Positions 13,928-32,410 of a stretch of 64,000 bases of DNA are shown in pieces. The notes beneath the pieces are model-generated. The model did not search any database, had not been told where the DNA came from, and saw only the letters and a list, made by a program, of their open reading frames with translations. The DNA is from Promethearchaeota archaeon (GTDB lineage: Archaea; Asgardarchaeota; Heimdallarchaeia; Hodarchaeales; Hodarchaeaceae): positions 320,001 through 384,000 of the forward strand of contig JBHLMN010000003.1 of the NCBI GenBank assembly GCA_048938105.1. Reading direction: 5' to 3'. The first letter of the stretch is position 1. Each line of letters opens with the position of its first letter. Position numbers and translations under genes: made by a program.

Positions 13928-16357
13928 TCAATTTGAGAATTCTAGAGCATGTTCAATAGCCCAAATGCTTAATGGCCGCATATACATACTTGCCCGATAA
14001 TTACCTGTGACATCCCAGGCTTCAGGCGTACGGTACCAATATCCTCTGTTATAAGTGCTATTAGTGTTATAGACAACATTATATATTCCCCACGCTGTAT
14101 TCCATGCTTCATCTATCATTCCACGGTGAATCATAAATGCGGTAAGGGCATAAGTTGTACCTGTCCATACTTCTTGAGATTGTTCACTAGTTTTGTCAAT
14201 GTCACCATCAGGTCGCATACCATTAACAGCTCCCATTTGCCCATCAGCAAATTTAAGAACATTATAGTTGTAGATTTTTTGTAAGGCCGATAAAATATGA
14301 TTTTCGGAGACTATAGGCTCCAAATCTGTGGCGTCACAATACCATTGACCGCCTAATTGATCAGCCATTATACTGTCAGAATAAGATCCCTCACTTGCAT
14401 CATAGTTATAATACTCTCCATTCCAGAGTTTATCCTCATATGAAGCTTTTCCTCTTACTAACCAACTCGTATACAGATTTACGTTATCTGTATCTCCAAT
14501 TATTATTCCCATTTTAATCGCTGCCTCTAAAGCTGCTAACCACAAACCAGCACAATAAGCACTTTCATTTGACATCTTCCATTCATCATAGGTCTGGTCT
14601 GGAACCCCTTCATTTTCAGGTAAATGATCTCCATCGGTATCATAATTGTGTAAATAATCTAGTGCCATAACAACAGATGTCCAACCATCCTCCACTAATG
14701 TAGTATCATTGGTAAAGAAATAATCACGATAAAGTTGTAAGACGAATTTTGAGTTCATATCTTTCCACATATTGGAATCACGCCACCGATAAGAATTGAC
14801 AATGAACCAGGGATCTTCATAACCAATATCATGAGGGCAGCTTCCAGGAACTTTACGTGGACCAGTCTCATCAGTAGCCCATATTGTCGTAATTGTTGGG
14901 TCATCTATAGGTACAGCTGCAATAAAATCTCTGATTGCTTGTTTTTGCAACTCAGGCCATAGCTGAATTAATGAAAAAGAGGCATAATAAAGAACATCAA
15001 AGGTATTATACATACTATAGTCAAAACACTCAAGAAAACCAAATCGGCCAATCCCTTCTTCAAGAGGCCCTTCACTAACAAGACCATTTTCCCAAAACGT
15101 ACCTCCATCAACTAAATAGTATAACTCGTTGAATAAAGCTGTCTTATACCAATTAGGCCGACTTTCGTCTTCTAGAATTGGTTGTTGCCAAGAATCAATG
15201 GCTTCTTCCCAATTTGTATAATTAGCTAAAGCTTCAGAGGCAATGGCTAATGCATTTCTTCCAGTAGTTCCAAAAAAACGAGTGTACCGTTTATACCATT
15301 GCCTATTCCAGTCAAATTCAGTTATGGGGAAGTCCCAAGCAAGAATAAAGGGGATTATTTGCTGCTCACTAGGATCTAATTCTAATGTAACCGATAAAGC
15401 TGCACCAATATCTTCTAATATGTCCGCATGATCAGTATTGTTAATGTTGTCTAATTTACCATCTGTTGCGAAATCTTGCCAAACATCAGAACCTCCACTA
15501 CTTACAGAAAAGCATGAACGATAGCTGATAGTCCAATTGGGGCTATTCTGTGTTACCAAAGCGAATGAGCCATCCCATTCTTCCTCTACCGTCTCTTTAT
15601 CGCGAGTAAGGATAATTCCAGTCATATTTTTGTCATCAGAGGTGAAGGCGTAGTTATACTTATCCATAAGTGGATGATCAGTATTACAAATTGACCCTAC
15701 AAGGTTCTGCCATGTGAACATCAATCCTACGATTATTGACTCATTTGTTGGATTCTCAACGGCCCATTCAAATACTCCAACAGGATAGCTACTTTCTTTG
15801 TAATTTTTCGGGATAATAGGCGAGAACTGTTTTTGCAGCAAGTTCACAGGTAGCTCTTTCCAATTGTAATCATACCATGCTTTAGGAAATAATCCATAAT
15901 ATGTCCCTGCGCCGACTGGCATATCCCAATTCCATTTTAGGTCTGTGTCTGATTCCTTTAACGATGAAAGAACATGTGCATCAGATTCATCTTTTTGGGA
16001 CACAAAAACAGAGAACTGATTTGCATCTATTGTTTCAAATTTATGTTTCCCAATTTCTAGATGCCAACGAGCGAAATCTCCACGATAGGTTCGGCCAATG
16101 CTTCCTGCACCTAAACCTCCAAGTGGTACTCCGCCCCATTCTTTATCATCTATGATCCAATAACTAGTTTTCGGCTTCCCAGTTTGACTGTAAGGAACTC
16201 CAATTCCTCGTGACCATGCCACCTTAGGTATGGTACTAGGAATAGATACTGGCCCCTCTGGTGAGCTAGGCTGATATAAAGTTAACAAAACCACGCCAAT
16301 AGCGCTTATTAGTAATAATATTGTGATTATGCCAGCTATTATTATATTTCTTATCAT
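13928..16357 (-). CDS. GH116 beta-glucosidase (GBA2/non-lysosomal glucosylceramidase family) with an N-terminal membrane anchor
   Basis: 809 aa; GVPLGGLGAGSI, SYPVGVFEW, LFNELYY, FLECFDY, PHDIG, WKDMNSKF, PDQTYDEW, EVWTG, TPEAW, YMRPLSIW; hydrophobic residues 5-26. Confidence 0.9.
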   Translation of the reverse strand: MIRNIIIAGIITILLLISAIGVVLLTLYQPSSPEGPVSIPSTIPKVAWSRGIGVPYSQTGKPKTSYWIIDDKEWGGVPLGGLGAGSIGRTYRGDFARWHLEIGKHKFETIDANQFSVFVSQKDESDAHVLSSLKESDTDLKWNWDMPVGAGTYYGLFPKAWYDYNWKELPVNLLQKQFSPIIPKNYKESSYPVGVFEWAVENPTNESIIVGLMFTWQNLVGSICNTDHPLMDKYNYAFTSDDKNMTGIILTRDKETVEEEWDGSFALVTQNSPNWTISYRSCFSVSSGGSDVWQDFATDGKLDNINNTDHADILEDIGAALSVTLELDPSEQQIIPFILAWDFPITEFDWNRQWYKRYTRFFGTTGRNALAIASEALANYTNWEEAIDSWQQPILEDESRPNWYKTALFNELYYLVDGGTFWENGLVSEGPLEEGIGRFGFLECFDYSMYNTFDVLYYASFSLIQLWPELQKQAIRDFIAAVPIDDPTITTIWATDETGPRKVPGSCPHDIGYEDPWFIVNSYRWRDSNMWKDMNSKFVLQLYRDYFFTNDTTLVEDGWTSVVMALDYLHNYDTDGDHLPENEGVPDQTYDEWKMSNESAYCAGLWLAALEAAIKMGIIIGDTDNVNLYTSWLVRGKASYEDKLWNGEYYNYDASEGSYSDSIMADQLGGQWYCDATDLEPIVSENHILSALQKIYNYNVLKFADGQMGAVNGMRPDGDIDKTSEQSQEVWTGTTYALTAFMIHRGMIDEAWNTAWGIYNVVYNTNSTYNRGYWYRTPEAWDVTGNYRASMYMRPLSIWAIEHALEFSN

Positions 16358-16382
16358 AGATTAGTTCTTCCTTTGAATATAT

Positions 16383-18827
16383 TTAGCTTATAATTCCTTT
16401 AATTGTAACTTTTTTCTTTCTTATAAATGAAAACGGAATGATATTCCCTTCAATCGGTTGACCATCGACTTCAAGTATAATCGAATTCCCCTCACCAGTA
16501 CGTTCAAGAGAAATGCTGTAATCCACCCCACGGAAGGTACGTGTTGCTTTAAAGCTGGACCAGGATTTTGGAATGATGGGTACGATCTGTAATCCAGTAT
16601 AGGTAGGTCGAATCCCAAGAATCCAATTTGTAATGGCAATATAATTCCAAGCAGCGGTACCAGTTAGCCAAGAATTCTTAGCTTCCCCGAAATTTGGGGC
16701 ATCTCGCCCAGCGATCATCTGAGCATATACATATGGTTCACAACGATGTAGTTCACTAATGTCTTCCCTGACAGAAGGATTAATTCGCATGTAATAATCA
16801 TATGCCTTATCTCCGTGCCCGATTATTGATTCAGAAATCATTATCCACGGATTTGTATGACAAAAAATACTCGCGTTTTCTTTATACCCTGGAGGATATG
16901 ACGAAATTTCTCCTAAATGTAAATAATACTGCGAATAGGGAGGTTGATGGAGCATGATACCATGTGGTGTAGCTAATAGTTTCTCCACAGCAGTTAGCGC
17001 CTTTTCCGCTCTGCCATCATTAAGCCCTATTCCAGCTAAGATGCAGAATCCCTGAGGTTCGACGAAAATCTGCCCCTCTTTGGACTCATGTGACCCCACC
17101 TCATTCCCAAAGTCGTCGTAGGCGCGTAGGAACCAGTCTCCATCCCAACCATATTTGTTAACAGCCTTCTTCATCTTTTCAATCCAAGTGAGATATTCTG
17201 TTACCTCCTCCTCCAAATCACATTCTTGGAGAATCTCAACTAATTCTTTTGCTGCAAGTACGAACAGCCCTGCAATAAATATTGATTCGGCTACTTTTCC
17301 ATCTTTGTTTGTTGTTGTCTGAAAAGACTGGTCTGGTTCTTCAGAAAAACAGTTCAGATTCAAACAATCATTCCAGTCTGCGCGGCCAATAAGTGGTAAC
17401 TCATGAGGTCCCAACCGTTTCTGTGTATAAGAAAGACTTCTCTTTAAATGGTCTAAAAGCTTTTCTTCTGTTCCAGGTTGATTTTCATATACTACAAGTT
17501 CATCGAGTATATTAAAATCACCTGTTTCCTTCAGATATGAGGCTACACTCAAAATTAGCCAGAGGGGGTCATCATTGAAATTACTACCAATGTCATCATT
17601 GCCTCGTTTTGTAAGAGGTTGATATTGGTGATATGCACCACCTGTTTTCAATTGCGTGGCAGCTAAATCCAAAATACGTTCCCGTGCTCGTTCAGGGACC
17701 ATATGGATAAAACCTAACAAATCTTGATTAGAATCACGAAATCCTATACCACGTCCGATTCCAGACTCAAAGAATGAGGCTGATCGTGACAAATTAAAAG
17801 TGACCATACACTGATAGGCGTTCCAAATATTAACCATCCTATTTGTATGAATGTCGGGCGTTTCAACTTGGAATTTTTCTAATAAGCTATTCCAATATGA
17901 ATTAAGGTTGTTAAAGGCCCTTTCCACATTATACTTATCCAAATATTTAGCGATGATTTTTTTTACGGTTTTTTTATTGATCGTCTGTGATCCAGGTGGA
18001 TCAAACTTTTTGTTATGAGGATTCTCGTGGTACCCGAGTATGAAGATGATTTGCTTTGTTTCATTGGGATCTAGAGAAATCTTAACATGATGTGATCCTA
18101 TTGGTGCCCAACCATGAGCTTCAGAATTATAAGAATGACCTCTTTCTACTACCACAGGTTTTTCCCAACTCCGATAAGATCCTAGAAAGTCGTCACGCTT
18201 AGTATCGAATCCTTCTAGAGGTTCTGAACATGCGAAATACGCAAAATGATTTCTTCGTTCACGATATTCTGTTTTGTGATATATTATGTTATTTTCAATC
18301 TCTACCTCCCCAGTATTATAATTTCGTTGGAAGTTGGTAAAATCATCCAAAGCATCCCACAAACAAAATTCAATACAGGAAAAAATTGACAGATTTACTT
18401 GCCTCTCCTGCTGGTTTTTTAATGAAAGTTGCCAAATTTCTAGATTCTCACTTAAAGGGACAAAATATCGTGTTGTTGCTTCAATCTTATTGTACGTGGA
18501 ACCGATGATAGAATATCCTAGCCCGTGACGACAAGTGAAATTCTCCAAATTGTTACGAGTGGGTTGCCATGAAGGAGACCAAAATTCTGTTGTTTTGTTA
18601 TCTCGTAAATAAATGTATCGTCCACCAGAATCCAAAGGAACATTATTATAACGATATCGAGTTATACGTCTTGTTTTTGCATCTTGATAAAATGAATATC
18701 CCCCTGCGGTATTAGAGATAATTCCAAAATATTTTTCGCAGCCTAAATAGTTAATCCAAGGCAATGGAGTATCAGGTTGAGCAATGACATACTCTCTAAG
18801 ATCATCATCAAAATAACCGTACCGCAT
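16383..18827 (-). CDS. GH94 cellobiose phosphorylase-like
   Basis: 814 aa; YGYFDD, TPLPWINYLG, RYRYNNVP, GRGIGFRDSNQD, ADWNDCLNLNCFS, KENASIFCH, NSWLTGTAAW. Confidence 0.88.
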   Translation of the reverse strand: MRYGYFDDDLREYVIAQPDTPLPWINYLGCEKYFGIISNTAGGYSFYQDAKTRRITRYRYNNVPLDSGGRYIYLRDNKTTEFWSPSWQPTRNNLENFTCRHGLGYSIIGSTYNKIEATTRYFVPLSENLEIWQLSLKNQQERQVNLSIFSCIEFCLWDALDDFTNFQRNYNTGEVEIENNIIYHKTEYRERRNHFAYFACSEPLEGFDTKRDDFLGSYRSWEKPVVVERGHSYNSEAHGWAPIGSHHVKISLDPNETKQIIFILGYHENPHNKKFDPPGSQTINKKTVKKIIAKYLDKYNVERAFNNLNSYWNSLLEKFQVETPDIHTNRMVNIWNAYQCMVTFNLSRSASFFESGIGRGIGFRDSNQDLLGFIHMVPERARERILDLAATQLKTGGAYHQYQPLTKRGNDDIGSNFNDDPLWLILSVASYLKETGDFNILDELVVYENQPGTEEKLLDHLKRSLSYTQKRLGPHELPLIGRADWNDCLNLNCFSEEPDQSFQTTTNKDGKVAESIFIAGLFVLAAKELVEILQECDLEEEVTEYLTWIEKMKKAVNKYGWDGDWFLRAYDDFGNEVGSHESKEGQIFVEPQGFCILAGIGLNDGRAEKALTAVEKLLATPHGIMLHQPPYSQYYLHLGEISSYPPGYKENASIFCHTNPWIMISESIIGHGDKAYDYYMRINPSVREDISELHRCEPYVYAQMIAGRDAPNFGEAKNSWLTGTAAWNYIAITNWILGIRPTYTGLQIVPIIPKSWSSFKATRTFRGVDYSISLERTGEGNSIILEVDGQPIEGNIIPFSFIRKKKVTIKGIIS

Positions 18828-19059: not shown

Positions 19060-21237
19060 ATGATTGAAGTATATAAGGATCCAACATATGCATTAAATAC
19101 AAGAACAAAGGATTTATTATCGAGAATGACGATTGAAGAAAAAGTAGGTCAGATGTGTCAACTTGATCTCAGTCACGATCCTAAAATCTGGATAAAAGAA
19201 AGAAATATTGGTTCATATCTTAATGTGAAATGGAAAGATACTCAAATCCTTCAAAAAATGGCTTTAGAAACACGGCTTGGTATCCCTCTTATTTTTGGAA
19301 TCGACGCGGTACATGGACATTGCTTTCATGATGGAGCAACAGTATTTCCAACGCAATTAGCAATGTCCTGCAGTTGGAATCCTGATTTATTAGAAGAGGT
19401 AGCTCGGATAACAGCAAAAGAAGTGATATACACAGGTATTCACTGGACTTTTTCTCCTATTCTCTGTATTGGACGAGACCCTCGTTGGGGTCGTATTGAT
19501 GAAACTTTTGGAGAAGATCCCTTTCTTATAGGAAAATTAGCTTCAGCAATGGTTAGGGGTTATCAGGGGAGGAACTTATCTGATCCCGAAAGCATTCTCG
19601 CCTGTCCAAAACATTTTGTAGCTTATGGTGAAACAATTGGAGGGAGGGACTCTGCAGAAGCAGAAATCTCAAGGAGAAAATTGAAAGATATCTTTTTACC
19701 ACCATTTAAGGAAGTAGTGGAGTCTGGTTGTGGTTCCATTATGGCAGGTTATCACTCAATAGATGGAACACCCTGCTCTGCAAATTCATGGTTATTAAGA
19801 GATGTATTAAAAACAGAATGGGGATTTAAAGGTTTCATTTTGACTGATTGGGCTAATGTAACTTGGTTGCATGAATCACAATTTGTTTCTCCTACATTAG
19901 CCAATGCGGCTGAAATTGCTCTTCTTGCTGGAAATGATATGATAATGTCAACCCCTGAATTTTATGATATCATAATCAAAGGAGTTAGAGAGGGTCACAT
20001 TGATGAAAAACTCATTGATGATGCCTGTTCGCGAATCTTGAAAATTAAATTCCGCCTAGGTCTCTTTGAACAAAAAGGATACCCTATCACTGATCTAAAT
20101 CCCAAAATTATTGGGTGTACGTTACATAAAAAGAAAGCTTTAGAAGCAGCACTTCAGTCATTAGTCTTATTAAAAAATAACAATGATCTTCTTCCTCTAA
20201 ATGAAAATTTAGGTAAGATTGCAGTATTAGGACCTAATGCAGATAATTCTATAGCTCAACTTGGCGACTGGTCCTTTGGAAAAGTTTTAAATTGGCCTCC
20301 AAAAGATAAAGATATTATAAATGGCCATAAAGCCAACACAGTTACTATTCTTGAAGGGATAAAAGCACGAGTTAAAGATAAGAGTTCTATATTGTATGCT
20401 AAGGGTTGTGATATATTAAACCCAGAAATAAAAGATATACAAAAAGCCACTTTTGTAGCTCAGGAAGCTGATGTAGCAGTAGTAGTTGTAGGGGATAGCC
20501 TTAGTTTAGTTGGAGAACATAAGGATCGAGCTTCTCTTGATCTTACAGGTGCACAAAATGAACTCTTAAAAGCTGTTAAAACGACAGGAACCCCTTTAGT
20601 TGTAGTTCTTATAAATGGAAAACCCTTAACAATTCCATGGGTAGCAAAAAATGCTGATGCAATTCTTGAAGCATGGAATCCTGGGAATGAAGGAGGAAAT
20701 GCAGTTGCTGCTGTACTTTTCGGGGATTATAATCCTTGTGGTAAGCTGACGATAAGCTTTCCTCTACATATTGGGCAGTTGCCTGTTTTTTATAATCAGC
20801 TGCCTGGGTGGCATGGAGGTAAATATGTAGACTTGGAGGCTGACCCTCTCTATCCATTTGGCTTTGGGTTATCTTATACTTCCTTTGAATATAAAAATCT
20901 TAGTTTATCAAAAACTAAATTGCAAAAAGATGAAATTTTGTATGTTTCCATGGATATTAAAAATACAGGGCATCGTAAAGGAGTCGAAATTGTACAACTT
21001 TATGTAAATGATAAATATAGCTCTGTAACAACTCCAATTAAGGAATTAAAAGGCTTTAAACGTGTTGACATACAACCTGGAGAAGAAAAACACGTTAAAA
21101 TAGTATTACCCATATCTACATTGTCATTGATTAATTCTGAAGGCGTAGAATGTGTTGAATCTGGAGAATTTGAAATTATGGTTGGTTGGTCATCAAGGGT
21201 TGAGGATCTTTTCAAGAAGACTATTGTTGTTTATTAA
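19060..21237 (+). CDS. GH3 beta-glucosidase/xylosidase
   Basis: 725 aa; DAVHG, RDPRWGR, FGEDP, KHF, ILTDW (nucleophile), GE..DR, PFGFGLSYT, C-terminal Fn3-like domain. Confidence 0.9.
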   Translation: MIEVYKDPTYALNTRTKDLLSRMTIEEKVGQMCQLDLSHDPKIWIKERNIGSYLNVKWKDTQILQKMALETRLGIPLIFGIDAVHGHCFHDGATVFPTQLAMSCSWNPDLLEEVARITAKEVIYTGIHWTFSPILCIGRDPRWGRIDETFGEDPFLIGKLASAMVRGYQGRNLSDPESILACPKHFVAYGETIGGRDSAEAEISRRKLKDIFLPPFKEVVESGCGSIMAGYHSIDGTPCSANSWLLRDVLKTEWGFKGFILTDWANVTWLHESQFVSPTLANAAEIALLAGNDMIMSTPEFYDIIIKGVREGHIDEKLIDDACSRILKIKFRLGLFEQKGYPITDLNPKIIGCTLHKKKALEAALQSLVLLKNNNDLLPLNENLGKIAVLGPNADNSIAQLGDWSFGKVLNWPPKDKDIINGHKANTVTILEGIKARVKDKSSILYAKGCDILNPEIKDIQKATFVAQEADVAVVVVGDSLSLVGEHKDRASLDLTGAQNELLKAVKTTGTPLVVVLINGKPLTIPWVAKNADAILEAWNPGNEGGNAVAAVLFGDYNPCGKLTISFPLHIGQLPVFYNQLPGWHGGKYVDLEADPLYPFGFGLSYTSFEYKNLSLSKTKLQKDEILYVSMDIKNTGHRKGVEIVQLYVNDKYSSVTTPIKELKGFKRVDIQPGEEKHVKIVLPISTLSLINSEGVECVESGEFEIMVGWSSRVEDLFKKTIVVY

Positions 21238-21585
21238 GAATGTACGTAATTTCTTTTTTGTAACTTCTATTAATTTTCTATCAATCCACATTGATCAGAT
21301 TAAACTGCTTATTTATGTCCAAAAAAGCTTAGGCAATTTCTTATTTTAACATCATATTTAGTACTACAGTAAGAATACGATAAAAATGAATTATAATTCA
21401 ATATGATATATATTTAACATGGTAAAATACCCTCTAAGTTCACACCTCTTGAAATAAGATCACATGTATTCATGATATGTATCCAAACATTTTACATGCC
21501 AGAAAAGATTTTAAATTGAAGAAGAAAATGATGTCGGTTTACTGAAATCCTATTTTTTTTCAGTAAAAAAAATGAAAGAAGGAAT

Positions 21586-23742
21586 ATGACTTTGAAACAC
21601 AAAACTAGAATTAATATACTAGTATTTCTTATTTTCCTATCTATGTTAGCCTTTCCTTTCAATTCTACAGCGCAAGGCAAAACAGCGGTGCCCGCAGCTA
21701 CTACTGTAGATTATACCACAGGATTCAACGTGAAACTAGGTGACTGGCCTATTCTGACTGTGTATGGTTGGAGTGATTCGATGATGCAGAGCACATTACT
21801 ATCAACTTACTTCACTGATCTGGGAATTTCGACGACTCCAGCATTCATTGAGTATGGAACTTATGTCAATGATTTCAATGCAATGGACTTCGAACTCATG
21901 AATTTCTGTATGGGATTTGGTCCAGCTAATCGACCATTCGCCGCATATGGTGCATTCACAGGTCAGGCAGGTCAATGGGCCAACTATACAGGATGGTACA
22001 GCCCAGAATTTGTGAACCTTCGGACTCAATGGGAAACTATTGACCCAACGAATACCACAGGAGAGCAAGCAATCGCCTCTAAACTACAGGAAATTATAGC
22101 AAGTGAGATGCCATCTATTCCTATGTTTCCAAATGGATATTGGTATTCGTTTAATAAGAAGTATTGGGAGAATTGGCCCACTAAAACAAATAACTGGATC
22201 CATGTAAGTGCACCCTGGAATACTGGTGGTGCTGGAGTGATGATGATGTATTTACTCAACCTTACATCAACTGGAACACCTGCACCAATTACAGGACAAG
22301 GTGCCTCAACTGACGCAGTAGTAATGCCAGCACGAGATGAGATTATTTGGTCTAGCGGTTATTGGCAAGGCCCCACGGGTTGGAATCCATTCTTTTGGGA
22401 AGAAGCATTTGGATCCTTTATCATGTACCAACCACTTTTTGACATGAATTACGAGAAAGGTGAACTGATGCCAATATTAGGCGAAAGCATGGTCTGGAAA
22501 GATGAGGGGTCGTGTCTCGAGATTACACTTCGAGATGAAGCAGAATGGTCTGATGGTACTCCTGTAAATAGTCAAGATGTTAACTACACATACAACTACC
22601 TACTTGCTCCCTTTAGGTTTGGAGATTTCTCAACGCGAGTAAACAAGACGGTGATTGTAGACGATAAAACAATCCAATTCTATATGAACCCAAAATACAA
22701 CTACAGCCAAATTATTTGGGATGGCTTTATTGGATACAATAAAATCGGCCCAGCACACGTATGGGAAGAGCTTGTCCCATGGTGGCGAGATGTAGGATTC
22801 GCTCAAGATTGGGGCGGTTGGGAACTGCAGGAATTCAAAAACAAATGGCTGGAAGATATTACGCTACCAAACGATACTAAAATTCCATTCCCAGCGGAAT
22901 GGAAGGTTTGTTCTGGACCATACCATCCTTACTTCGTCTCCGATACCTTCGATAGGCACATTTACATAAGAGACGATGATTGGTGGGGTAACGATGTCTG
23001 GCAAGCGCCAGAAGCCAAGTATATGGGGCAACTACATTATGCTACCAATTTCGCGGTGAATCAAGCGTATGCAGCTGATGAGATCGATTGGTTTGGTGGG
23101 TATTATCCCCGTATTTGGGAGCTCATAGCTGATAATCCAAATATTGATACTTGGACTGAAGGTGCTGAACCCTATTTCCTCCCGATTTCTGGAATGGTTG
23201 AAGTAGTTCCAAACCACCTCAGATATCCGTTTAACGAGTATTGGTTAAGGGAAGCATTAGCATACGCCATCAATTATTACGACATGTCTGAAGTCTCTTG
23301 TAGTGGTTACCTAGAGAGAGCTCGCATGGGCTACCTTGACGATAGAAGCCCAACACAAGCATACCTTTACGATAGTGCAGTTGAAACGAAGTATCATATC
23401 GATTATAACCTAACGAAAGCAATAGAAATCTTAGAAGAATATTGTTTCAAACATACTGATGGAGCATGGTACACAAAAGATGTTCCTGAAGAATATCAAT
23501 CCATGCTTGGACACGATGGTAACCCACTTAAAGACGAACTTGGAGTTGAAGAAACATCGGAGACTACTGCTACTAAGACCGCTACCAAAACCGCTACCAA
23601 AACCGCTACAAAAACCGCTACAAAGACCAAAACTAAAACCAAAACTTCAACAAGTCAAGCTGGTCCTGGTTTCGAGATTCTCGTTATTGCTACAGCAGCA
23701 TTTTGCATGACATTAGCCTATAAACGACGAAGACGAACATAG
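21586..23742 (+). CDS. Family-5 (cluster C) ABC solute-binding protein, oligosaccharide-binding type, with permuted domain order, Thr/Lys stalk and PGF-CTERM-like anchor
   Basis: 718 aa; signal peptide; internal LRDEAEWSDGTPVNSQDV family-5 signature, SGPY, LREALAYAI; (TATK)n stalk; GPGF + TM helix + KRRRR. Confidence 0.85.
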   Translation: MTLKHKTRINILVFLIFLSMLAFPFNSTAQGKTAVPAATTVDYTTGFNVKLGDWPILTVYGWSDSMMQSTLLSTYFTDLGISTTPAFIEYGTYVNDFNAMDFELMNFCMGFGPANRPFAAYGAFTGQAGQWANYTGWYSPEFVNLRTQWETIDPTNTTGEQAIASKLQEIIASEMPSIPMFPNGYWYSFNKKYWENWPTKTNNWIHVSAPWNTGGAGVMMMYLLNLTSTGTPAPITGQGASTDAVVMPARDEIIWSSGYWQGPTGWNPFFWEEAFGSFIMYQPLFDMNYEKGELMPILGESMVWKDEGSCLEITLRDEAEWSDGTPVNSQDVNYTYNYLLAPFRFGDFSTRVNKTVIVDDKTIQFYMNPKYNYSQIIWDGFIGYNKIGPAHVWEELVPWWRDVGFAQDWGGWELQEFKNKWLEDITLPNDTKIPFPAEWKVCSGPYHPYFVSDTFDRHIYIRDDDWWGNDVWQAPEAKYMGQLHYATNFAVNQAYAADEIDWFGGYYPRIWELIADNPNIDTWTEGAEPYFLPISGMVEVVPNHLRYPFNEYWLREALAYAINYYDMSEVSCSGYLERARMGYLDDRSPTQAYLYDSAVETKYHIDYNLTKAIEILEEYCFKHTDGAWYTKDVPEEYQSMLGHDGNPLKDELGVEETSETTATKTATKTATKTATKTATKTKTKTKTSTSQAGPGFEILVIATAAFCMTLAYKRRRRT
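23566..23646 (+). repeat. Intragenic 12-bp tandem repeat (about 5 copies, consensus ACCGCTACMAAR) plus a 6-bp ACYAAA run, encoding (TATK)5(TK)3
   Basis: actgctactaag accgctaccaaa accgctaccaaa accgctacaaaa accgctacaaag accaaa actaaa accaaa act. Confidence 0.9.
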
Positions 23743-23751
23743 GAATAAAGC

Positions 23752-23782
23752 CTCTCCCCCCTTTCTTTTTTTCCCTTTTTTT
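23752..23782 (+). terminator. Pyrimidine/oligo-T tract after the SBP gene (archaeal-type terminator)
   Basis: ctctcccccctttcttttttcccttttttt starting about 10 nt after the stop codon. Confidence 0.6.
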
Positions 23783-24151
23783 AATAAAATTAAATCTCAT
23801 GATAATTCACCTCAAATTTGTAAGTAAAATTTACTTTAACCCAATTAAAGGAGTTAATGTTATCATCATGCCACTTTTTTTGATGTGTAAAGAATATAAT
23901 TGTAATGGAACAATGAAAAGACTTTTAAAACCGCAAATAAGAAAGTGGAGGCGATAGATAGTTATCAGATCATCTTTTCGTTCTTTACTTATGTTCTAAC
24001 AGGAATGTGACTGAATAAGTGTACTTACTCATCCCTTAATCATTATTCAAGATAAAACAAATTTCCTTGGATAGCGAAAACTCTTAAGAAAAAAAAGAAA
24101 AATTAACCCAAAAAGTGATTATAATTCCTTAGATGAGATATAAAATTATAG

Positions 24152-25288
24152 GTGAGAAATTTGTCTTCTTCAGTAGAGCAAATAACAGAGATAAAAGAGA
24201 AAAAAAATGTATTACTAAGAATAAAAAGCACTTTTTCCCATTCTTATGCCAAATTCATAATGAAAAAAGCTGGTTTTTATCTACTTGTGATTTTTTGTGC
24301 CCTTACACTCACATTCCTCATTCCTAGGTTAATGCCTGGTGATCCTACTGACAGACTACTTCGGCCTCCTCCGAATGTCAGTGACCCTAAACAGCTGGAA
24401 CAATACTATAAGATGAAAGACCTTATAATAGCCTATTATGGTCTTGATAAACCTATATTCCCTGATCAATTTGTGGAATTCTGGGATCATATGTTCCATT
24501 TGGATTTGGGAACCTCTTATAGTCTTTATCCAGTTTCTGTTGTGGACGCCATGATACCACGGATTTGGATGACACTCATCCTCGTGATTCCAGTATTATT
24601 CATTAGTTTCTTCCTGGGTAATTGGATTGGAGGTAAAGCAGCCTTTGGAAGTTTAGAAAAAGGATATTCAGCCCAATTAGCTGACTTAGTATACTATGTG
24701 AATATGATCCTGCAATCTGCTCCCTTCTACTGGCTTGCTTTAATCGTTTATCTGTATTTCGTGATCGAGCTGAGAAAGCAAGGTGTTACTATTTTCCCAA
24801 TTAATCACCCAGGAGGAGTGGGTCCAGAAATGATCCCAAGTGTCTCAATTGAATATTTCATTGAGCTTTTACGTCATTATGCGTTACCTTTTATCACATT
24901 ACTTGTTACTTTTACTGGTGGTTGGGCAACAGGTATGCGAGCTATGACTCTTTATGAAATGGAATCAGAATATTTGTTATATTCTGAGCAAATGGGATTT
25001 AGGAAAAAGAAGTTACAATCATATGCCCAAAGGAACGCCATTTTACCTCAATTTACTGGATTAAATTTAAGATTTAATGATTTAGTAGGTGCGACTATAT
25101 TAACTGAAGCCATTTTCGGTTGGCCTGGTCTTGGTTCCATGCAATTAAACGCAATCATGATGCTGGATTTTCCATTAATAATTGGCACTTTTATAATTAC
25201 TTTGGTTATTGTGGTCTTTGGTAATTTTATCGTTGATATTACATATGGATTTATAGATCCTCGCATAAGAACTGGTCATGGAGGTTGA
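24152..25288 (+). CDS. dppB: ABC transporter permease (DppB/OppB type)
   Basis: 378 aa; PRLMPGDP, YGLDKP, DLGTS, RNAILPQ, EAIFGWPGLG, DFPLIIG, YGFIDPRIR. Confidence 0.9.
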   Translation: MRNLSSSVEQITEIKEKKNVLLRIKSTFSHSYAKFIMKKAGFYLLVIFCALTLTFLIPRLMPGDPTDRLLRPPPNVSDPKQLEQYYKMKDLIIAYYGLDKPIFPDQFVEFWDHMFHLDLGTSYSLYPVSVVDAMIPRIWMTLILVIPVLFISFFLGNWIGGKAAFGSLEKGYSAQLADLVYYVNMILQSAPFYWLALIVYLYFVIELRKQGVTIFPINHPGGVGPEMIPSVSIEYFIELLRHYALPFITLLVTFTGGWATGMRAMTLYEMESEYLLYSEQMGFRKKKLQSYAQRNAILPQFTGLNLRFNDLVGATILTEAIFGWPGLGSMQLNAIMMLDFPLIIGTFIITLVIVVFGNFIVDITYGFIDPRIRTGHGG

Positions 25289-25292
25289 ATAT

Positions 25293-26144
25293 ATGTTGGA
25301 TTTGATAAAACAAAATCGAGTATTCGCTTTTGCAATAGCTAGTTTTATCCTCATAATTGGCTTTGGATTTATAGTACCATACTTTACTAGAGATCCACTG
25401 GATCCTATTTTGGATAGGTTTGGAACTAGAGTCATTTTTCGACCCCCATCACCAAATTATATCCTGGGAACTGATGATTGGGGAAGAGATGTCTTTGCTC
25501 AACTTGCTCATGCCACACGTAATTCTTTAGAAATCGGTTTTGTTACAGGAATCATGGTTGCAATAATTGGTGTTACTATTGGAACTGCTGCAGGCTATTT
25601 AGGAGGTTGGATTGATGAAATACTTATGTTTCTTACTAATGTCGTTCTTGTTTTTCCTGTCTTTCCAATGTTATTAGTTCTCTCAGCTCATCTAGAAGAA
25701 AGATCTATGTTCATGGTTGCAGCAATTCTTGCTATTACAGGTTGGCCTTGGGTAGCAAGAGCTTTAAGAGCCCAGGTTCTCAGCTTAAAGGAAAGAGAAT
25801 TTGTGAATTTATCACGAGTCTCAGGGATGAGTAATATAAGAATAGCTTTAGCAGAAATTTTACCAAACATGCTTGCTTATATTGGATTGGTCATAGCAAT
25901 AGTTACTGGCGGAGCTATTGTCGCTGAAGCAGGAATTAGCATGTTAGGCCTGGGTCCAAATCCTCTAGTAAACCCTACATTGGGAGGAATGCTCTATTGG
26001 GTCATTCAGAACGAATCGATAAGATCTAATTACTATTGGTTGTATTTTCCCCCAGGGATCATTTTGACCTACTTTTTTGTTGACCTTTACATTTTACATA
26101 GGCATATGGACGAATTGTTCAATCCTAGATTGAGAAGGCGATAA
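25293..26144 (+). CDS. dppC: ABC transporter permease (DppC/OppC type)
   Basis: LGTDDWGRD, AGYLGGWID, ARALRAQVLSLKEREF, EILPN, AEAGISMLGLG, NPRLR; ATG at 25293 follows GGAGG (ORF track starts at 25278). Confidence 0.9.
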   Translation: MLDLIKQNRVFAFAIASFILIIGFGFIVPYFTRDPLDPILDRFGTRVIFRPPSPNYILGTDDWGRDVFAQLAHATRNSLEIGFVTGIMVAIIGVTIGTAAGYLGGWIDEILMFLTNVVLVFPVFPMLLVLSAHLEERSMFMVAAILAITGWPWVARALRAQVLSLKEREFVNLSRVSGMSNIRIALAEILPNMLAYIGLVIAIVTGGAIVAEAGISMLGLGPNPLVNPTLGGMLYWVIQNESIRSNYYWLYFPPGIILTYFFVDLYILHRHMDELFNPRLRRR

Positions 26145-26148
26145 CTAA

Positions 26149-27132
26149 ATGTCTGACTTACTCTTGGACGTAAAAAACCTAAAAGGTTATTATAAGGGTG
26201 TTTTTGGTGTTGTTCATGGAGTAGATGATGTTACATTTACGCTTGAAAAAGGGGAAATTGTTGGTCTTGCTGGAGAATCAGGTTGTGGCAAATCCACTTT
26301 AGCTGAACTCATTACAGGAACCCCCAGACCCCTCTTACATTATGAAGAGGGCACGGTTATTGTTGATGGATTTAATATTTATGAAATTAACAAGGAAGAC
26401 TTGAGAACAGAGGTAAAGTGCAAGCGGATGTCATATGTCCCCCAAGCATCATTAGAATCTTTAAATCCCGTGAAAAAGATAAAGAATTTCATCATGGATG
26501 TGGTACGAGAACGAACTGGTAAAAAAGGAGAAAAGAAGAAAATTCAAAAGCTTGCAGCAGACCATTTTGCCAGAGTTGGCCTAGATAAAGATGTTCTTAA
26601 TCGCTATCCCCATGAACTTAGTGGTGGGATGAAGCAGCGGGTTGTAATTGCGATTTCTACTTTATGGAATCCAACACTTTTAATTATTGACGAACCAACA
26701 AGTGCTCTTGATGTCACCTCACAAAAACGTATGGTAAAAATGCTATCGGAAGTAAAAAAGGAAGGGATTATTCAAAGCATCTTATTTGTCTCCCATGATA
26801 TCGCTACTCTCAGACAAATATGTGATAGAATCATCATCATGTATTGTGGTGAAATTGTCGAAACAGGAAAGATGGGAGATATAATCAATAATCCACTTCA
26901 TCCCTATACGAAGGGATTAATTTCATCCATTGTTTCATTTAATCCAGACGGTACTCGTCCAGCTGAATTGAAAAGCATTCCAGGAGAACAACCTGACTTA
27001 AGGAACCCTCCATCTGGTTGCCGATTCCACCCAAGGTGTTATAGTGCTGGCACCCACTGCAAAGAGTATGAACCCCCAATCTATACCCCATCTGGTAAAG
27101 ATCATCAAGTGAAATGCTGGTTATTCAAATAA
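26149..27132 (+). CDS. dppD: ABC transporter ATP-binding protein (DppD/OppD type)
   Basis: GESGCGKS, YPHELSGGMKQR, IIDEPTSALD, HPYT, C-terminal CRFHPRC..C..C Cys motif. Confidence 0.92.
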   Translation: MSDLLLDVKNLKGYYKGVFGVVHGVDDVTFTLEKGEIVGLAGESGCGKSTLAELITGTPRPLLHYEEGTVIVDGFNIYEINKEDLRTEVKCKRMSYVPQASLESLNPVKKIKNFIMDVVRERTGKKGEKKKIQKLAADHFARVGLDKDVLNRYPHELSGGMKQRVVIAISTLWNPTLLIIDEPTSALDVTSQKRMVKMLSEVKKEGIIQSILFVSHDIATLRQICDRIIIMYCGEIVETGKMGDIINNPLHPYTKGLISSIVSFNPDGTRPAELKSIPGEQPDLRNPPSGCRFHPRCYSAGTHCKEYEPPIYTPSGKDHQVKCWLFK

Positions 27133-27148
27133 TCGAATTGGTGTTCTC

Positions 27149-27952
27149 ATGACCGCAAATGAATTGCTTCTAAAAGTTGACAAATTAACAAAAATATATT
27201 CATCTGGTCTATTAAGGACAATCCAAGTGATTGGAGCAAAAAATGTATCTTTTAATATTAAAAGAGGTGAAATTATTTCTCTTGTAGGTGAGAGCGGAAG
27301 TGGAAAATCGACAACAGCCAATATGATCTTGAAGCTAATCAAACCAACAAGTGGACATATTTTTCTTAATGATAAAGATATTTTTTTAATTAAAAATAGA
27401 AAAGAATACTATAAAAGAGTACAAGTGATATTTCAAGATCCATATTCCTCCTTTAACTTAGTATACAAAATTGATCGTATGTTAAACCAAGCTTTTAACC
27501 TTCTCGACACTCATTTCTCTAAAGCCACAAAACAGGAAATTATTGAAGATACTTTGGCGCAAATAGGTCTAAATGCAGATGAAGTTTTAGGCAGGTACCC
27601 TCATCAACTTAGTGGAGGGCAGCTACAACGATTTCTCTTAGCAAGAGTCTTAATTATCCGACCTGACTTGTTAATTGCTGATGAACCAACTAGTATGATT
27701 GATGCCTCGTCACGAGCAGGGATCCTGAATCTTCTTGAAGATTTAAAGGACGATACAGGTTTATCTGTGCTGTTCATTACACATGATATTGCTCAAGCAC
27801 AATACATATCCAGCAAGGTTTGTGTGATGAAAAACGGGGAAATTATTGAAAAAGGTCTATGTGAGAAAGTTTTTGCTCATCCACAACATCAATATACAAG
27901 AGATTTACTGGCGAGTATACCTGATCTGCATAATAAATGGGGGGATATATAG
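27149..27952 (+). CDS. dppF: ABC transporter ATP-binding protein (DppF/OppF type)
   Basis: GESGSGKS, FQDPYSS, YPHQLSGGQLQR, ADEPTSMID, HQYT. Confidence 0.92.
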   Translation: MTANELLLKVDKLTKIYSSGLLRTIQVIGAKNVSFNIKRGEIISLVGESGSGKSTTANMILKLIKPTSGHIFLNDKDIFLIKNRKEYYKRVQVIFQDPYSSFNLVYKIDRMLNQAFNLLDTHFSKATKQEIIEDTLAQIGLNADEVLGRYPHQLSGGQLQRFLLARVLIIRPDLLIADEPTSMIDASSRAGILNLLEDLKDDTGLSVLFITHDIAQAQYISSKVCVMKNGEIIEKGLCEKVFAHPQHQYTRDLLASIPDLHNKWGDI

Positions 27953-27998: not shown

Positions 27999-29099
27999 TT
28001 GAAAAACCGAAATTTAGCTTATATGATTATTTTTATTGGAATAATCATGAGTATTGGAATAATACAAATTAGATGTGTAAAGGCAGTAAGAGCAAACAGA
28101 AATGTCAAAAGGATTGGAAAATTTGATGACGGAGGCAAAGGTTTTGGTGTTTTTGTGAACAATTCTATCGCTTACTTAGCTGATGGTTATGAAGGATTAG
28201 ATACTGTAAACATTAGCATCCCGGAGGAGGCGTACAAATTAGGAAAGTATAATGATTATGCTGGCCAATCCAGAAGTGTTTATGTAAGTGGCGCTTATGC
28301 GTATGTAGCTGAAGGTGAACGGTATGGTTTAGAGATTCTCGATGTATCCGATCCTACTAAACCCATCCAAGTAGGAGAATATAATGAATTTGATGGTGAA
28401 GCTAGAGATGTTGTTGTTATTAATTCTTATGCCTTTCTCGCTGATTTTAAGAATGGAGTTAAAATTATTAATGTAACTGATCCGACCAATCCGACAAAAG
28501 TTGGACAATACGACGATGGTGGTGAGGCTTGTGGAATATATATTAATAAAACACTTGCTTATATTGCAGATGGAAACGATGGCCTTGAGATCTTAAATAT
28601 AAGTGATCCACTTAATCCAGTGGAAATAGGCCAGTGCTATGATGATAGTGGCAGAGCTACTGGGATTTTTGTCAGTGGTTCTTATGCGTTTGTGGCTGAT
28701 TTTGACAATGGGCTTGAGATCATTAATATAAGTGACCCAACTAATCCAATTGAAGTCGGGGAATGCTATGATGATAGTGGATTAGCTAATTCCGTATTCG
28801 TTGAAGGTTCCCTTGCTTATATCGCTGATAATCAAGATGGACTAGAAGTGATTGATGTCAGTAATGTCACTAATCCTGTTGAAATAGGTCAATTCTATGA
28901 AGAATATGGCCTTGTCGGCATGGCAATGGATGTTGTTGTTTACAACTCCTTTATTTATGTAGCTCATGGATCACAAGGATTAGAAATTCTGAAGTTTGAA
29001 ACATATTCCCCTCCCCCAGATATTATCCCATTTGTCGTTGTTGGAGCTGTAGTGATTGGTGTAGGAGTTTGGTTTTTCAAAGGAAAAAAAGAGGAATAG
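27999..29099 (+). CDS. LVIVD-repeat beta-propeller surface protein with a C-terminal TM anchor
   Basis: 366 aa; signal peptide; about 7 repeats of ~43 aa (AYxADxxxGLEIxxISDPxNPxExG); C-terminal hydrophobic helix followed by KGKK. Confidence 0.85.
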   Translation: MKNRNLAYMIIFIGIIMSIGIIQIRCVKAVRANRNVKRIGKFDDGGKGFGVFVNNSIAYLADGYEGLDTVNISIPEEAYKLGKYNDYAGQSRSVYVSGAYAYVAEGERYGLEILDVSDPTKPIQVGEYNEFDGEARDVVVINSYAFLADFKNGVKIINVTDPTNPTKVGQYDDGGEACGIYINKTLAYIADGNDGLEILNISDPLNPVEIGQCYDDSGRATGIFVSGSYAFVADFDNGLEIINISDPTNPIEVGECYDDSGLANSVFVEGSLAYIADNQDGLEVIDVSNVTNPVEIGQFYEEYGLVGMAMDVVVYNSFIYVAHGSQGLEILKFETYSPPPDIIPFVVVGAVVIGVGVWFFKGKKEE

Positions 29100-29113: not shown

Positions 29114-29887
29114 CTATTTTACTTGTTTCATGTTTCTACAGACGTTTTTGCGGAGAATAACAACCATCAGTGTGAATGCAATTAGTGAAATCGTACATTC
29201 CAATCCTGGAGTTCCATTAGCGGCATTTGAATTACTAGATTCGGGAGCTTCCCATAGAGAAGCTTCATCAGGATAATAATCCCAATAAGAGACGCCGCTT
29301 GTTAAGGTTTCTTTATAGACTGAAGTTGTATCAACTGATGTCCAAGACCAAACCTCAATATCCCAATTGCCAGAATTTGAGAGTATATCCCAAGAAGAAA
29401 TATCGCTTTTCCAAGAGAGACTTTTACTATCAGTGTCTATAGTGGGTTTATCAACACCATTTGATACACCACCAGTTTCATTTTTCCAAACATACCAAGA
29501 GGCTGATGATACTGTAGTAGAAGTTATTCCCCCCACTCTAAACCAAGCTGCGCCAGGAATCATATCACCCATAGTTCTTCCACCCTCAAAGTCAATCCAG
29601 ATTTCATAAATATGTGAACCATCAATAATAGGTGTGTCTTGGCATTTCAGGGTTACTGCTATCTTATTTTCATTGTCAACAGCTTCAACAGAAAGAGATA
29701 CAATATCAATCTCATTTTTAAAGTCACCTATTTTGTAATTATAGTCTGAACCATCCCAACTGATCATCTCAACATCATCTGTATCATCATTTGCTATATC
29801 CGCGTTTGGTAATGATTTTATGGGTATCAATAAGACGAGTACCAGTCCACAAGTAAGAAATGGAATTATTCTTAATTTTTTACGCAT
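29114..29887 (-). CDS. Secreted Trp/Asp-rich hypothetical protein with a PGx-CTERM-like anchor (possible DOMON/CBM9-like beta-sandwich)
   Basis: 257 aa; signal peptide; DDTDDV..EIDIVS..YEIWID; S/N linker, TPGL + TM + RK. Confidence 0.6.
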   Translation of the reverse strand: MRKKLRIIPFLTCGLVLVLLIPIKSLPNADIANDDTDDVEMISWDGSDYNYKIGDFKNEIDIVSLSVEAVDNENKIAVTLKCQDTPIIDGSHIYEIWIDFEGGRTMGDMIPGAAWFRVGGITSTTVSSASWYVWKNETGGVSNGVDKPTIDTDSKSLSWKSDISSWDILSNSGNWDIEVWSWTSVDTTSVYKETLTSGVSYWDYYPDEASLWEAPESSNSNAANGTPGLECTISLIAFTLMVVILRKNVCRNMKQVK

Positions 29888-30043
29888 TATTAGTCTGACT
29901 CCTGTTACTTAAACGTTTTTGACAAAGCGCCCTCACAATGAATTTAGTTTATTATATGAATTTTCCTCTATTATTTGATCTGTCACACATTTTCTATATT
30001 TTAATAGATGAATTCAGAACGATTCAAAGGAGGGAGTTTTGTC

Positions 30044-32410
30044 CTATCCCATCTCAATATTAATTGTATGTTTTTTCCCTACTTCTAATATTGATAATTG
30101 ATTGCTTTCTAGTGTTTTTTTCCCAATATTCACCTTTTTTACCCCTTTAGACACATGGTTTGGATTTTCAACCTTTATATCATACGTTGCATCCCTAAAA
30201 CGTCGGATAACACGGAAATTAGTCCATTCATTAGGAATACATGGATCTACCTTCAAACCATGAAATGTTGGTTGTATTCCAAGAATTGATTCCATGACAA
30301 CCTTCATTGACCACGCTGCTGTTCCTGTAAGCCAGGAATTTTTCGCTAATCCGAATTTTGGATGGTTTTTTCCAGCAATCATCTGTGAATAGACATAAGG
30401 TTCAGCTTTATGAATCTCTCCCATCCTGTTCTTCGTAGGTGGGGCAATTTTCTTGTAATATTCATAAGCTCGCCCCCCTCTTCCTAACTTACACTCAGCA
30501 ATGATCAACCACGGATTAGTATGGCAGAATATTGAAGCATTTTCTTTTAATCCAGGAGAAAAAGTAGTTATTCCACCCAATTCTGGATAATACTCGGTAA
30601 AAGGAGGGGCAAGAAGCATGACCCCGTATTCCGTGTCAAGATGCTTTTTTACAGAGTCTAGACATTGATAAGCTCTGTCTTTGGTGGCAACATCACTGAT
30701 AATAGCCCAAGTTTGAGTATTGAGGAAGATTTTTCCTTCCTTACATTTTGAACTTCCTACAGGTTCACCAACATCAGTAAAAGCTCTAATATACCATTCT
30801 CCATCCCATGCTACCTCGTTTACATGATTTCGTATTTCACTAGCCAGATTATTAAATGTTCTGGAATCCTGTTCATTCTCATATTCTTTTGTAAGTGCTG
30901 CTAAATCTAATAGAGCTTTATGAAATTGCATTGCTACCCAAACGCTTTCACCAGCATTATTTGGGCCAGGGAGGCTAAAAGGATCATTCCAATCTGCGGT
31001 ACCTATCAATGGCATACCATGTTTTCCCATGTTATTTTGGGTGAATTCAATTGCCCTTTTGAGATGGTCGTACAAAGAAGCATTAGATCCTTCAATAAAT
31101 GATATTTCTTCATCTAAGATAGATATATCTCCAGTTTCTTTGATGTATTCAGAAACAGCTAAAATCAACCATAAATGGTCATCACTAAAGAATTTCATGC
31201 TTTTCTTAGTGTATTCAGGAAAAGCACCTTTACCAGAGAGAGGGAAATATAAATGATAGACTTTACCACTTTCAAACTGGTTTTTAGCTAGATCTAGGAG
31301 TCGTTGACGGACTTTTTTTGGGAGAACATAATTAATTGCCATTGCATCTTGGCTACAATCTCTAAATCCCATTCCTCTACCTATACCTGTTTCATATAAA
31401 GACACATATCGCGACCAGTCAAATGTGACTTTACATTGATAGGGATTCCAGATATTAACCATTAAATTAAGTTCATTATCAGGAGTGTCTACTACAAGGG
31501 CTTCTAGGTGATTAATCCAAGAATTTGCTAATTTTTTAAGCGCAGATTGTACCTTTAATTGGTCTATATATTTCTGAACATATTCTTTCGCTTCAGCTTC
31601 TTCATTACTAACGCCTAGAATGAATATAATATTTCTTTCCTCGTGAGGATCAATAGTTAAGGCATTACAAGTAGCAGCAATAGGATTTCCACCAAAGGCT
31701 TGAGAATTAAAACACGAACCTCTTTCTACACCTAGAGGATTAATTTCTGACCTGTATTGACCAATAAAAACTTCTCGGTCGCAGTCGTAACTGCTTATAT
31801 CTCCATTTGATGAAAAAAAGGCATATCCAGTACTCCTATCAAAAAAAGAGTAATAAATAATGCCATCCTTGAATTTTGCTTCAGCCACGTTTTGGATATA
31901 CTGAAGATCATTTTGATCTCCTAACGCTCTCCATAAACAGAACTCTGCATAAGAAAAAATACTCAAGTTCTTTCTTTCAGATCTTGTATTTTTCAATGAC
32001 AACATCCATATTTCTAAGTTCTCTTTTAAGGGAACAAAATAAATGATTTCACTTTCAATTCCCATAAACGATGATTTGACTTTAGTATATCCCAAGCCAT
32101 GTCGGCATTCATAACTATCCAGATCCCTAGGTACTGGTTGCCAAGTAGGAGACCAATATTGAGAAGTTTCATTATCTCTGATATAGATATACCTTCCAGG
32201 CCTATCCATTGGTAAATTATTATATCTATATCTTAATAATCTTCGATCTCTTGGATCTATATGGAAACTATACCCTCCACCAGTGTTCGAAACCATAGCA
32301 CAATATTGACTATTACTTAAATAATTAATCCAAGGAGTAGGGGTGTCTGGTCTCGTGATCACATATTCTTTTGTATCTTGTGAAAAATATCCATACTTCA
32401 AACTATTCAC
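30044..32410 (-). CDS. GH94 glycoside phosphorylase (second paralog; specificity probably not cellobiose)
   Basis: 788 aa; PDTPTPWINYL, RYRYNNLP, GRGMGFRD, ADWNDPFSL, KENASIFCH, NSWLTGTAAW. Confidence 0.88.
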   Translation of the reverse strand: MNSLKYGYFSQDTKEYVITRPDTPTPWINYLSNSQYCAMVSNTGGGYSFHIDPRDRRLLRYRYNNLPMDRPGRYIYIRDNETSQYWSPTWQPVPRDLDSYECRHGLGYTKVKSSFMGIESEIIYFVPLKENLEIWMLSLKNTRSERKNLSIFSYAEFCLWRALGDQNDLQYIQNVAEAKFKDGIIYYSFFDRSTGYAFFSSNGDISSYDCDREVFIGQYRSEINPLGVERGSCFNSQAFGGNPIAATCNALTIDPHEERNIIFILGVSNEEAEAKEYVQKYIDQLKVQSALKKLANSWINHLEALVVDTPDNELNLMVNIWNPYQCKVTFDWSRYVSLYETGIGRGMGFRDCSQDAMAINYVLPKKVRQRLLDLAKNQFESGKVYHLYFPLSGKGAFPEYTKKSMKFFSDDHLWLILAVSEYIKETGDISILDEEISFIEGSNASLYDHLKRAIEFTQNNMGKHGMPLIGTADWNDPFSLPGPNNAGESVWVAMQFHKALLDLAALTKEYENEQDSRTFNNLASEIRNHVNEVAWDGEWYIRAFTDVGEPVGSSKCKEGKIFLNTQTWAIISDVATKDRAYQCLDSVKKHLDTEYGVMLLAPPFTEYYPELGGITTFSPGLKENASIFCHTNPWLIIAECKLGRGGRAYEYYKKIAPPTKNRMGEIHKAEPYVYSQMIAGKNHPKFGLAKNSWLTGTAAWSMKVVMESILGIQPTFHGLKVDPCIPNEWTNFRVIRRFRDATYDIKVENPNHVSKGVKKVNIGKKTLESNQLSILEVGKKHTINIEMG

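Follow-up and report, generated by a model that had tools for sequence, protein, structure and literature searches.

The window analysed here is a stretch of 64,000 nucleotides from the genome of a Promethearchaeota archaeon (assembly GCA_048938105.1, contig JBHLMN010000003.1). The element in question is an open reading frame (ORF) of 718 amino acids, open at 21586–23742 on the forward strand, whose product belongs to the family-5 substrate-binding proteins (Pfam SBP_bac_5, PF00496). The frame is intact, and a signal peptide, a stalk and a predicted membrane anchor are all present. The Pfam profile scores 88.4 bits against a cut-off of 32.4 and covers residues 294–637 only (profile positions 2–290 of 368). 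The family-5 signature, LRDEAEWSDGTPVNSQDV (LRDEAEWSDG...), which usually starts near residue 80–100, begins at residue 315, and the displacement remarked in an earlier note on this DNA is therefore real. In what follows segment A denotes the first two thirds of a canonical family member and segment B its C-terminal third. The parts of the gene, in chain order, are these.

21586–21678, forward strand: Sec-type signal peptide, residues 1–31 (basic n-region, hydrophobic core, ...STAQG), read from the translation
21679–21720, forward strand: new N-terminal tail, residues 32–45, placed by the de-permuted alignment described below
21721–22263, forward strand: segment B, residues 46–226, the canonical C-terminal third, now first; matches residues 370–558 of 2o7i
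22264–22323, forward strand: linker of 20 residues (227–246) from the old C-terminus to the old N-terminus, placed by a dip in the predicted local distance difference test (pLDDT) and by junction comparison
22324–23553, forward strand: segment A, residues 247–656, the canonical first two thirds with the family-5 signature; matches residues 4–358 of 2o7i and positions 2–290 of PF00496
23554–23661, forward strand: Thr/Ala/Lys stalk, residues 657–692, about six 12-nucleotide tandem units, from a repeat search (23554–23649) and the translation
23662–23742, forward strand: PGF/Heimdall-CTERM-like sorting tail (GPGF, hydrophobic helix, KRRRRT) and stop codon, from profiles and the translation

Comparison of the ORF product with the PDB sequences by phmmer gave crossed matches. 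Against the Thermotoga maritima cellobiose binder 2o7i, residues 246–396 and 438–623 of the query match residues 4–155 and 170–358, while query residues 49–233 match residues 370–558 (i-Evalue 1.6e-14). The crossed pattern is repeated with 4jsd, 4pft and 1vr5, and the PDB relatives reach an E value of 3e-44. This is the outcome that the earlier note expected of a separate alignment of the two portions, and its view that residues ~49–227 resemble the C-terminal third of such binding proteins was correct. Pairwise BLAST against orthologues is likewise crossed, with both segments at 52–62% identity: segment A shares 52–60% of its residues with positions ~36–453 of the canonical orthologues, and segment B 56–62% with positions ~434–659 of the orthologues P0002 and P0004. 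Each segment is present once, and no duplicated segment lies within the ORF or its flanks, so the arrangement is a permutation and not a duplication. The two segments are each most similar to the same orthologues, from a syntenic locus, which points to one ancestral gene and argues against a chimera. Since the alignments to 2o7i and to 37 homologues are crossed, the product does not follow the canonical chain order of SBP_bac_5, and the sequence comparisons confirm the ORF as a true natural circular permutant of a family-5 (cluster C) binding protein. They also support the proposal that the chain was re-opened at a surface loop and the old termini fused through a Thr/Gly/Pro/Ala linker; from such a re-opening it follows that the stalk and anchor emerge from another place on the fold. 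The one boundary that needs correction is the end of the fold, which the earlier note put at ...HTDGAWY; alignments with the orthologues extend the conserved part to about residue 652–655 (...KDELGVE).

The nearest proteins are Asgard in origin (under the names Heimdallarchaeota, Hodarchaeota/Hodarchaeales and Hermodarchaeota) and 52–60% identical. Their best local alignment covers only some 65–70% of the query, because these relatives run A then B whereas the window protein runs B, linker, A. Canonical order was found in all 37 of the closest homologues in which both segments are detectable. The canonical Asgard orthologues P0004 (hypothetical protein JSW11_19765, Candidatus Heimdallarchaeota archaeon), P0002, P0003 and P0006, 52–62% identical over both segments, otherwise resemble the query closely. 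They share a locus of a glycoside hydrolase (GH) of family GH3, the binding protein, an ATP-binding cassette (ABC) importer and an LVIVD-repeat protein, and they share a signal peptide, which in them directly precedes segment A, a T/K-rich stalk and a PGF/Heimdall-CTERM anchor. In P0004 the stalk is followed by a GPGFE...RRKKK tail that scores 29.5 bits on NF045529 (Heimdall-CTERM; cut-off 24). With 17 bits the query tail stays short of that cut-off; its GPGF motif, hydrophobic helix and KRRRRT tail are visible, and TIGR04281 (the tail of PGF-anchored binding proteins) matches query residues 656–716.

Closer to the organism itself, three genomes of the same genus (G009, G011 and G012) have the A match first and the B match downstream of it in a single frame. 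Two of these, G009 and G011, are syntenic with the window over the GH3 gene (80–82% identical), the binding protein, two permeases, two ATPases and the LVIVD-repeat protein, and their binding proteins are canonical. We also searched 300 Asgard species genomes, evenly drawn; the family is present in 32 of them, all cases with both segments are canonical and the only colinear match is the window. No close permuted relative of the query was found in a word-indexed search, in the same-genus genomes or in the 300 Asgard genomes, and no second member of the subfamily was found in the query's own genome. Taken together, the syntenic canonical congeners, the single copy in its own genome and the lone colinear match among the 300 show, at the level of genome comparison, that the rearrangement occurred in place at the orthologous locus after the split from the sequenced congeners.

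A permuted gene in a metagenome-derived assembly invites the suspicion that assembly or binning put fragments of a canonical gene, or fragments from two copies of it, together in the wrong order. The genome (5.85 Mb in 65 contigs, 99% complete) carries an estimated contamination of 7%, and the exact protein is absent from a collection of 15 billion proteins, both of which fit such an artefact. We nevertheless consider it extremely unlikely. Logan contigs of public runs were compared with the window over 21000–24300. A 12.7-kb contig of run X1, which may be the source sample, spans the whole interval with zero differences. In X2, a second sample of the same study, a 1718-base contig (21469–23186, eight differences) bridges the junctions of signal peptide with B and of B with A, and a 256-base contig (23439–23694) bridges that of A with the stalk. 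The permuted order is thus seen across all three junctions in independently built contigs from two samples, and the contiguity across the linker region that the earlier note wished to see confirmed is borne out by assembled contigs. In addition, all three junctions are in frame and biologically sensible, passing from signal peptide to fold to stalk, there is no second genomic copy to mis-join, and the flanks are syntenic with those of the congeners. Contigs of other studies (X4 and X5) give partial cover, at 21129–21721 and 23017–23577, and bridge junctions by fewer than 31 nucleotides. One of them, from X4, is a 97%-identical variant at 21454–21721 and 23033–23577 that runs about 24–27 nucleotides past two junctions. 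These sequences offer only a hint that the permuted allele is present in the samples of other studies.

The fold was modelled with AlphaFold2 from an input alignment to which each canonical homologue contributed two separate rows, one for A and one for B. Over residues 28–662 the model has a pLDDT of 90.4 and a predicted template modelling score (pTM) of 0.88. The linker falls to 60–68 (blocks of 68 and 60) against more than 90 on both sides, and low confidence is confined to the new N-terminal tail, the linker and the extreme C-terminus. The predicted structure is a compact, normal fold with a floppy 20-residue linker. Foldseek returns 2o7i as its top match with 421 aligned columns only, and VIA-align superposes residues 220–617 of the model on the first ~375 residues of 4pfu, 4pft, 1vr5 and 2o7i with Z scores of 21.5–23. 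Both programs are sequential aligners, for which a match confined to segment A is the necessary outcome with a permutant. As regards the bilobed three-domain fold of the family, and the structural check suggested in the earlier note, the result is a confident model whose segment A superposes on the solved members.

It might be supposed that a real rearrangement wrecked the protein and that the ORF is a recent relic which no longer serves the transporter. The gene is a singleton with no permuted relatives within ~40% divergence, as a relic would be, but we judge this reading very unlikely. The frame of 718 codons has been kept together with its sorting signals, and in a tree of segments A and B the branch of the query is of ordinary length (0.29 against 0.24–0.31). 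Against the query, the variant that differs by 3% at the nucleotide level carries nine synonymous and four non-synonymous codon changes. The ORF is the sole binding-protein gene beside the transporter, and the genome has no second family member. From these observations the gene would still be under constraint and is probably functional. The confident fold prediction and the independent permutants that lie within equally intact sugar operons (below) also speak against decay.

The genes adjoining the ORF indicate what the protein may bind.

19060–21237, forward strand: GH3 beta-glucosidase directly upstream (Pfam), 80–82% identical in the syntenic G009 and G011 loci
24152–27952, forward strand: Opp/Dpp-type ABC importer of two permeases (BPD_transp_1) and two ATPases (ABC_tran and oligo_HPY) (Pfam), with order and orientation kept in G009 and G011

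The wider locus holds GH116, two GH94 phosphorylases, GH3, GH17, GH16 and GH5. As an observation in its own right, the permuted gene sits within a dense beta-glucan utilization locus (13928–18827 and 29114–37158 of the window) comprising GH116, GH94, GH3, the importer, the LVIVD-repeat protein, a second GH94 and GH17/GH16/GH5-type genes. The best matches in both sequence and structure, which share SBP_bac_5 and cluster C with the query, are the T. maritima cellobiose binder 2o7i/3i5o, which we take to be TM0031, and the mannoside binders TM1223 and TM1226 (1vr5, 4pft, 4pfu). These, too, have Opp-type transporter partners and a glycoside-hydrolase neighbourhood. In contrast to them, the query is permuted, with the equivalent of their residues ~370–558 first; it ends in a stalk with a PGF-type tail as its anchor; and a long insertion, absent from the Thermotoga proteins, occupies the cut loop. 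Given the surrounding GH genes and these Thermotoga relatives, the likely ligands are cello- or laminari-oligosaccharides. In the scheme that we envisage, anchored GH16, GH17 and GH5 enzymes encoded nearby would release beta-glucan oligosaccharides. The permuted protein would bind those of the cello- or laminari- type and pass them on to the adjoining importer, and their intracellular breakdown would fall to GH94, GH3 and GH116.

To locate the cut, the query was re-joined as A followed by B and aligned with 14 canonical kin, with which it is colinear across the cut. The site is a hypervariable loop between ...DE and a conserved G-F/Y-NVKLGDW strand. In the 14 kin this loop ranges from 7 to ~36 residues; it has ~22 in the query, and the gap in 2o7i is only ~12. 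Residues 32–45 are most likely the downstream half of the cut loop, since in the de-permuted alignment they fill the variable loop just before that strand. By comparison with the OppA-type architecture, the loop presumably lies in the second lobe, after a helix-hairpin motif. By that analogy a cut here would leave both hinge crossings intact, and the tether would exit from lobe 2 instead of lobe 1.

The linker begins where the canonical kin begin their stalk, after ..LNL, and its right end, ..VVMPARDE, matches the mature N-terminus of the kin, for example ..ITMPARDE in P0006. These ends are consistent with a head-to-tail fusion of two copies and equally with any event that kept both old ends. 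Duplication, fusion and trimming is the textbook favourite among routes to permutation. Here it would involve a tandem duplication, an in-frame fusion and loss of the outer parts, and the linker would then consist of the first part of the former stalk joined to the N-terminal tail of the former mature protein. We give this route about an even chance. A repeat search over 21200–24200, in which the intergenic flanks were not searched by translation, revealed no leftover A or B fragments, only the 12-nucleotide stalk repeat and pairs at chance level.

We then asked whether the family has been permuted elsewhere. An exhaustive HMMER search of 1.84 billion cluster representatives, followed by segment-wise BLAST of the proteins fetched, gave 157 canonical and four permuted representatives besides the query, and two further cluster members are also permuted.

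P0052, 659 residues: on the 254-kb Logan contig SRR22273277_82 (L015:8001–9980); cut in the query's loop, with a GIPGF tail
P0061, 686 residues: from GCA_964552335.1; cut in the query's loop, with a T-rich stalk and transmembrane anchor, in an ABC operon with GH94
P0122/P0195: Thermococcus celericrescens WP_083500652.1 and T. sp. 21S7; cut ~100 residues from the canonical C-terminus
P0163/P0196: bacterial lipoprotein (..LAGC), anchored by an N-terminal lipid; cut ~25 residues earlier than the query

Like the query, all have B before A and are intact genes beside ABC importers and glycoside hydrolases. They are independent events, with only 25–38% identity to the query, and the closest relatives of each are canonical. 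Those of P0052, for instance, are canonical without exception, among them a protein of Candidatus Lokiarchaeum ossiferum (62% identity). In a segment-A tree of 97 rows the permuted state needs five changes, at least four of which are forced by well-supported branches. An A+B tree of 36 rows places the query as sister to the canonical P0004 and P0006 (support 99), P0052 to P0198 (100) and P0061 to P0060 (97). In the approximately unbiased (AU) test, a clade made up of the query and the two other proteins cut in its loop is rejected (log-likelihood difference 829, p 1e-5), as is a grouping of the query with P0052 (p 1e-4). The forced changes and the AU rejections together show, as far as sequence phylogeny can, at least four independent permutations within the family, of which three (query, P0052 and P0061) opened the chain at the same loop.

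Two of these genomic settings deserve description. The contig of P0052 is Lokiarchaeia-like and encodes Arf/Rag-type small GTPases, and its ABC operon is flanked on both sides by GH94 genes. In T. celericrescens (GCA_001484195.1, LLYW01000038.1, L019:6001–7836) the permuted binding protein, with the last ~100 canonical residues first, neighbours a PIG-L deacetylase, GH1, an ABC importer, a SIS-domain protein and a GH35 GlmA-like glucosaminidase. By its gene content this cluster looks like the chitin pathway of the Thermococcales.

Why the chain should have been re-cut is a separate matter. The earlier note had suggested an adaptation to C-terminal, archaeal tethering. The canonical Asgard orthologues do not bear this out, since they carry the same stalk and PGF/Heimdall-CTERM tail (P0004), and the survey of homologues that the note recommended gave only canonical order among the 37 closest and among all two-segment members in the 300 Asgard genomes. 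Nor does P0163, which is permuted and yet is a bacterial N-terminal lipoprotein. As C-terminal anchoring coexists with canonical order, the adaptive rationale is removed. In a weaker form of the idea, moving the tether from lobe 1 to lobe 2 improved the reach of the protein to the permease or its docking there, and selection fixed the permutation. The three proteins cut independently in one loop are all anchored at the C-terminus, and the query and P0052 come from Asgard-type genomes, which is what such selection might produce. We still regard it as quite unlikely. Such a stalk and anchor ordinarily go with canonical order, at 157 representatives to four; apart from the window, every two-segment member in the Asgard genomes searched is canonical; each permutant is a singleton among canonical sisters; and the differently cut Thermococcus protein has been permuted too, as has the lipid-anchored one. 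The shared loop is, moreover, the longest and most variable, so that tolerance alone would explain its repeated use.

We therefore favour, and hold to be likely, a reading in which the ORF encodes a working receptor for beta-glucan oligosaccharides, a lineage-specific permutant re-cut in a hypervariable surface loop by a rearrangement of a kind that has been tolerated repeatedly. The event would have been roughly neutral rather than adaptive. The encoded chain runs from the signal peptide through B, a flexible linker of ~20 residues, A and the T/A/K stalk to a predicted PGF/Heimdall-type membrane anchor.

Several points weigh against this reading. The count of nine to four codon changes is small, and its use assumes that the 97% variant is also permuted, though its junctions are bridged by fewer than 31 nucleotides. 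The fold is a prediction, built from an alignment in which the A and B rows are unpaired, and the assignment of the cut loop to a domain relies on the general OppA architecture and not on coordinates. Each Asgard permutant is a singleton without known permuted descendants. As for a duplication, neither an A-B-A-B fusion nor a tandem pair turned up among family members of at least 740 residues or in the syntenic loci, nor among proteins of 1258–3590 residues, the latter being weak evidence. Motifs duplicated at the junctions (..TAQGKTAV.. and ..TGQGASTDAV..; TSTGT and TSETT) were considered as remnants of a duplication and dropped, since shuffled controls equal their local-alignment scores in 40–85% of trials at both protein and DNA level.

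A more specific idea concerns the loop that follows the ...EILEEY.. helix and its beta-hairpin and leads into the NVKLGDW strand: in nature the cluster C fold would be re-opened there repeatedly, owing either to a real advantage or to a specific mutational mechanism. We think this unlikely. A candidate mechanism would be recombination promoted by the repetitive DNA that encodes the stalk or by tandem binding-protein genes. If the idea were correct, young pairs of permutant and canonical protein (~60% identity, same operon) would form a natural experiment on tether position, topology and importer docking.

The closest precedent is Treponema pallidum Tp0684 (TpMglB-2), an ABC binding protein of cluster B that has been described as circularly permuted in nature (PMC4990184). 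Like the query it is a naturally permuted, membrane-tethered sugar-binding protein; it still binds its ligand, and so shows that the bilobed fold tolerates permutation (PMC4990184). The two differ in three respects. TpMglB-2 belongs to cluster B (type I), the query to cluster C; TpMglB-2 has gained a fourth hinge crossing through permutation, whereas the two hinge crossings of the query should be untouched; and TpMglB-2 founds a conserved subfamily, whereas the permutants described here are scattered singletons with canonical sisters (PMC4990184 for TpMglB-2). Our literature search found no description of a permuted family-5 or cluster C binding protein.

The present case offers no new transport mechanism; its interest lies in the matched orthologue pairs and in a loop that has been cut repeatedly. 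To our knowledge, natural permutations have mostly been recognized only as family differences that are old and already fixed. Here the event has been caught young, with the permuted gene in the same operon as the canonical orthologues of its congeners and both halves 52–62% identical. Matched pairs of permuted and canonical proteins, one of them in a cultivable Thermococcus, would allow the origin and cost of the rearrangement and the effect of tether position on delivery to the permease to be tested. For protein engineering, they provide naturally validated split and permutation sites in a class of scaffold that is widely used for biosensors. For annotation, they are a reminder that a profile match over only two thirds of such a protein can hide a rearranged but complete fold.

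Some smaller observations concern the gene and its surroundings. For the enzyme that would process the sorting tail, a search of the genome for archaeosortase A (TIGR04125) gave two sub-threshold matches only, of 31 and 22 bits against a cut-off of 75; the many PGF/Heimdall-type tails encoded here may be processed by a different type of archaeosortase. The ArtA-like ORFs, ~257–259 residues long, lie on contig C64 at 58355–58675 and on contig C38 at 34283–34606. The LVIVD-repeat protein (five repeats, 192 bits) is encoded at 27999–29099, directly after the ABC ATPase genes, and occupies the same position in G009 and G011 at ~44% identity. The repeat units of the stalk at 23554–23649 are ACC GCT ACC AAA and variants, encoding (TATK)n and then (TK)n, and one Logan contig of another study terminates within them. 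Directly after the stop codon of the binding protein there is a long pyrimidine- and T-rich run (23743–23790), and a gap of 409 bp precedes the permease gene; this arrangement of the DNA would be compatible with a transcript of the binding-protein gene that is separate and more abundant.

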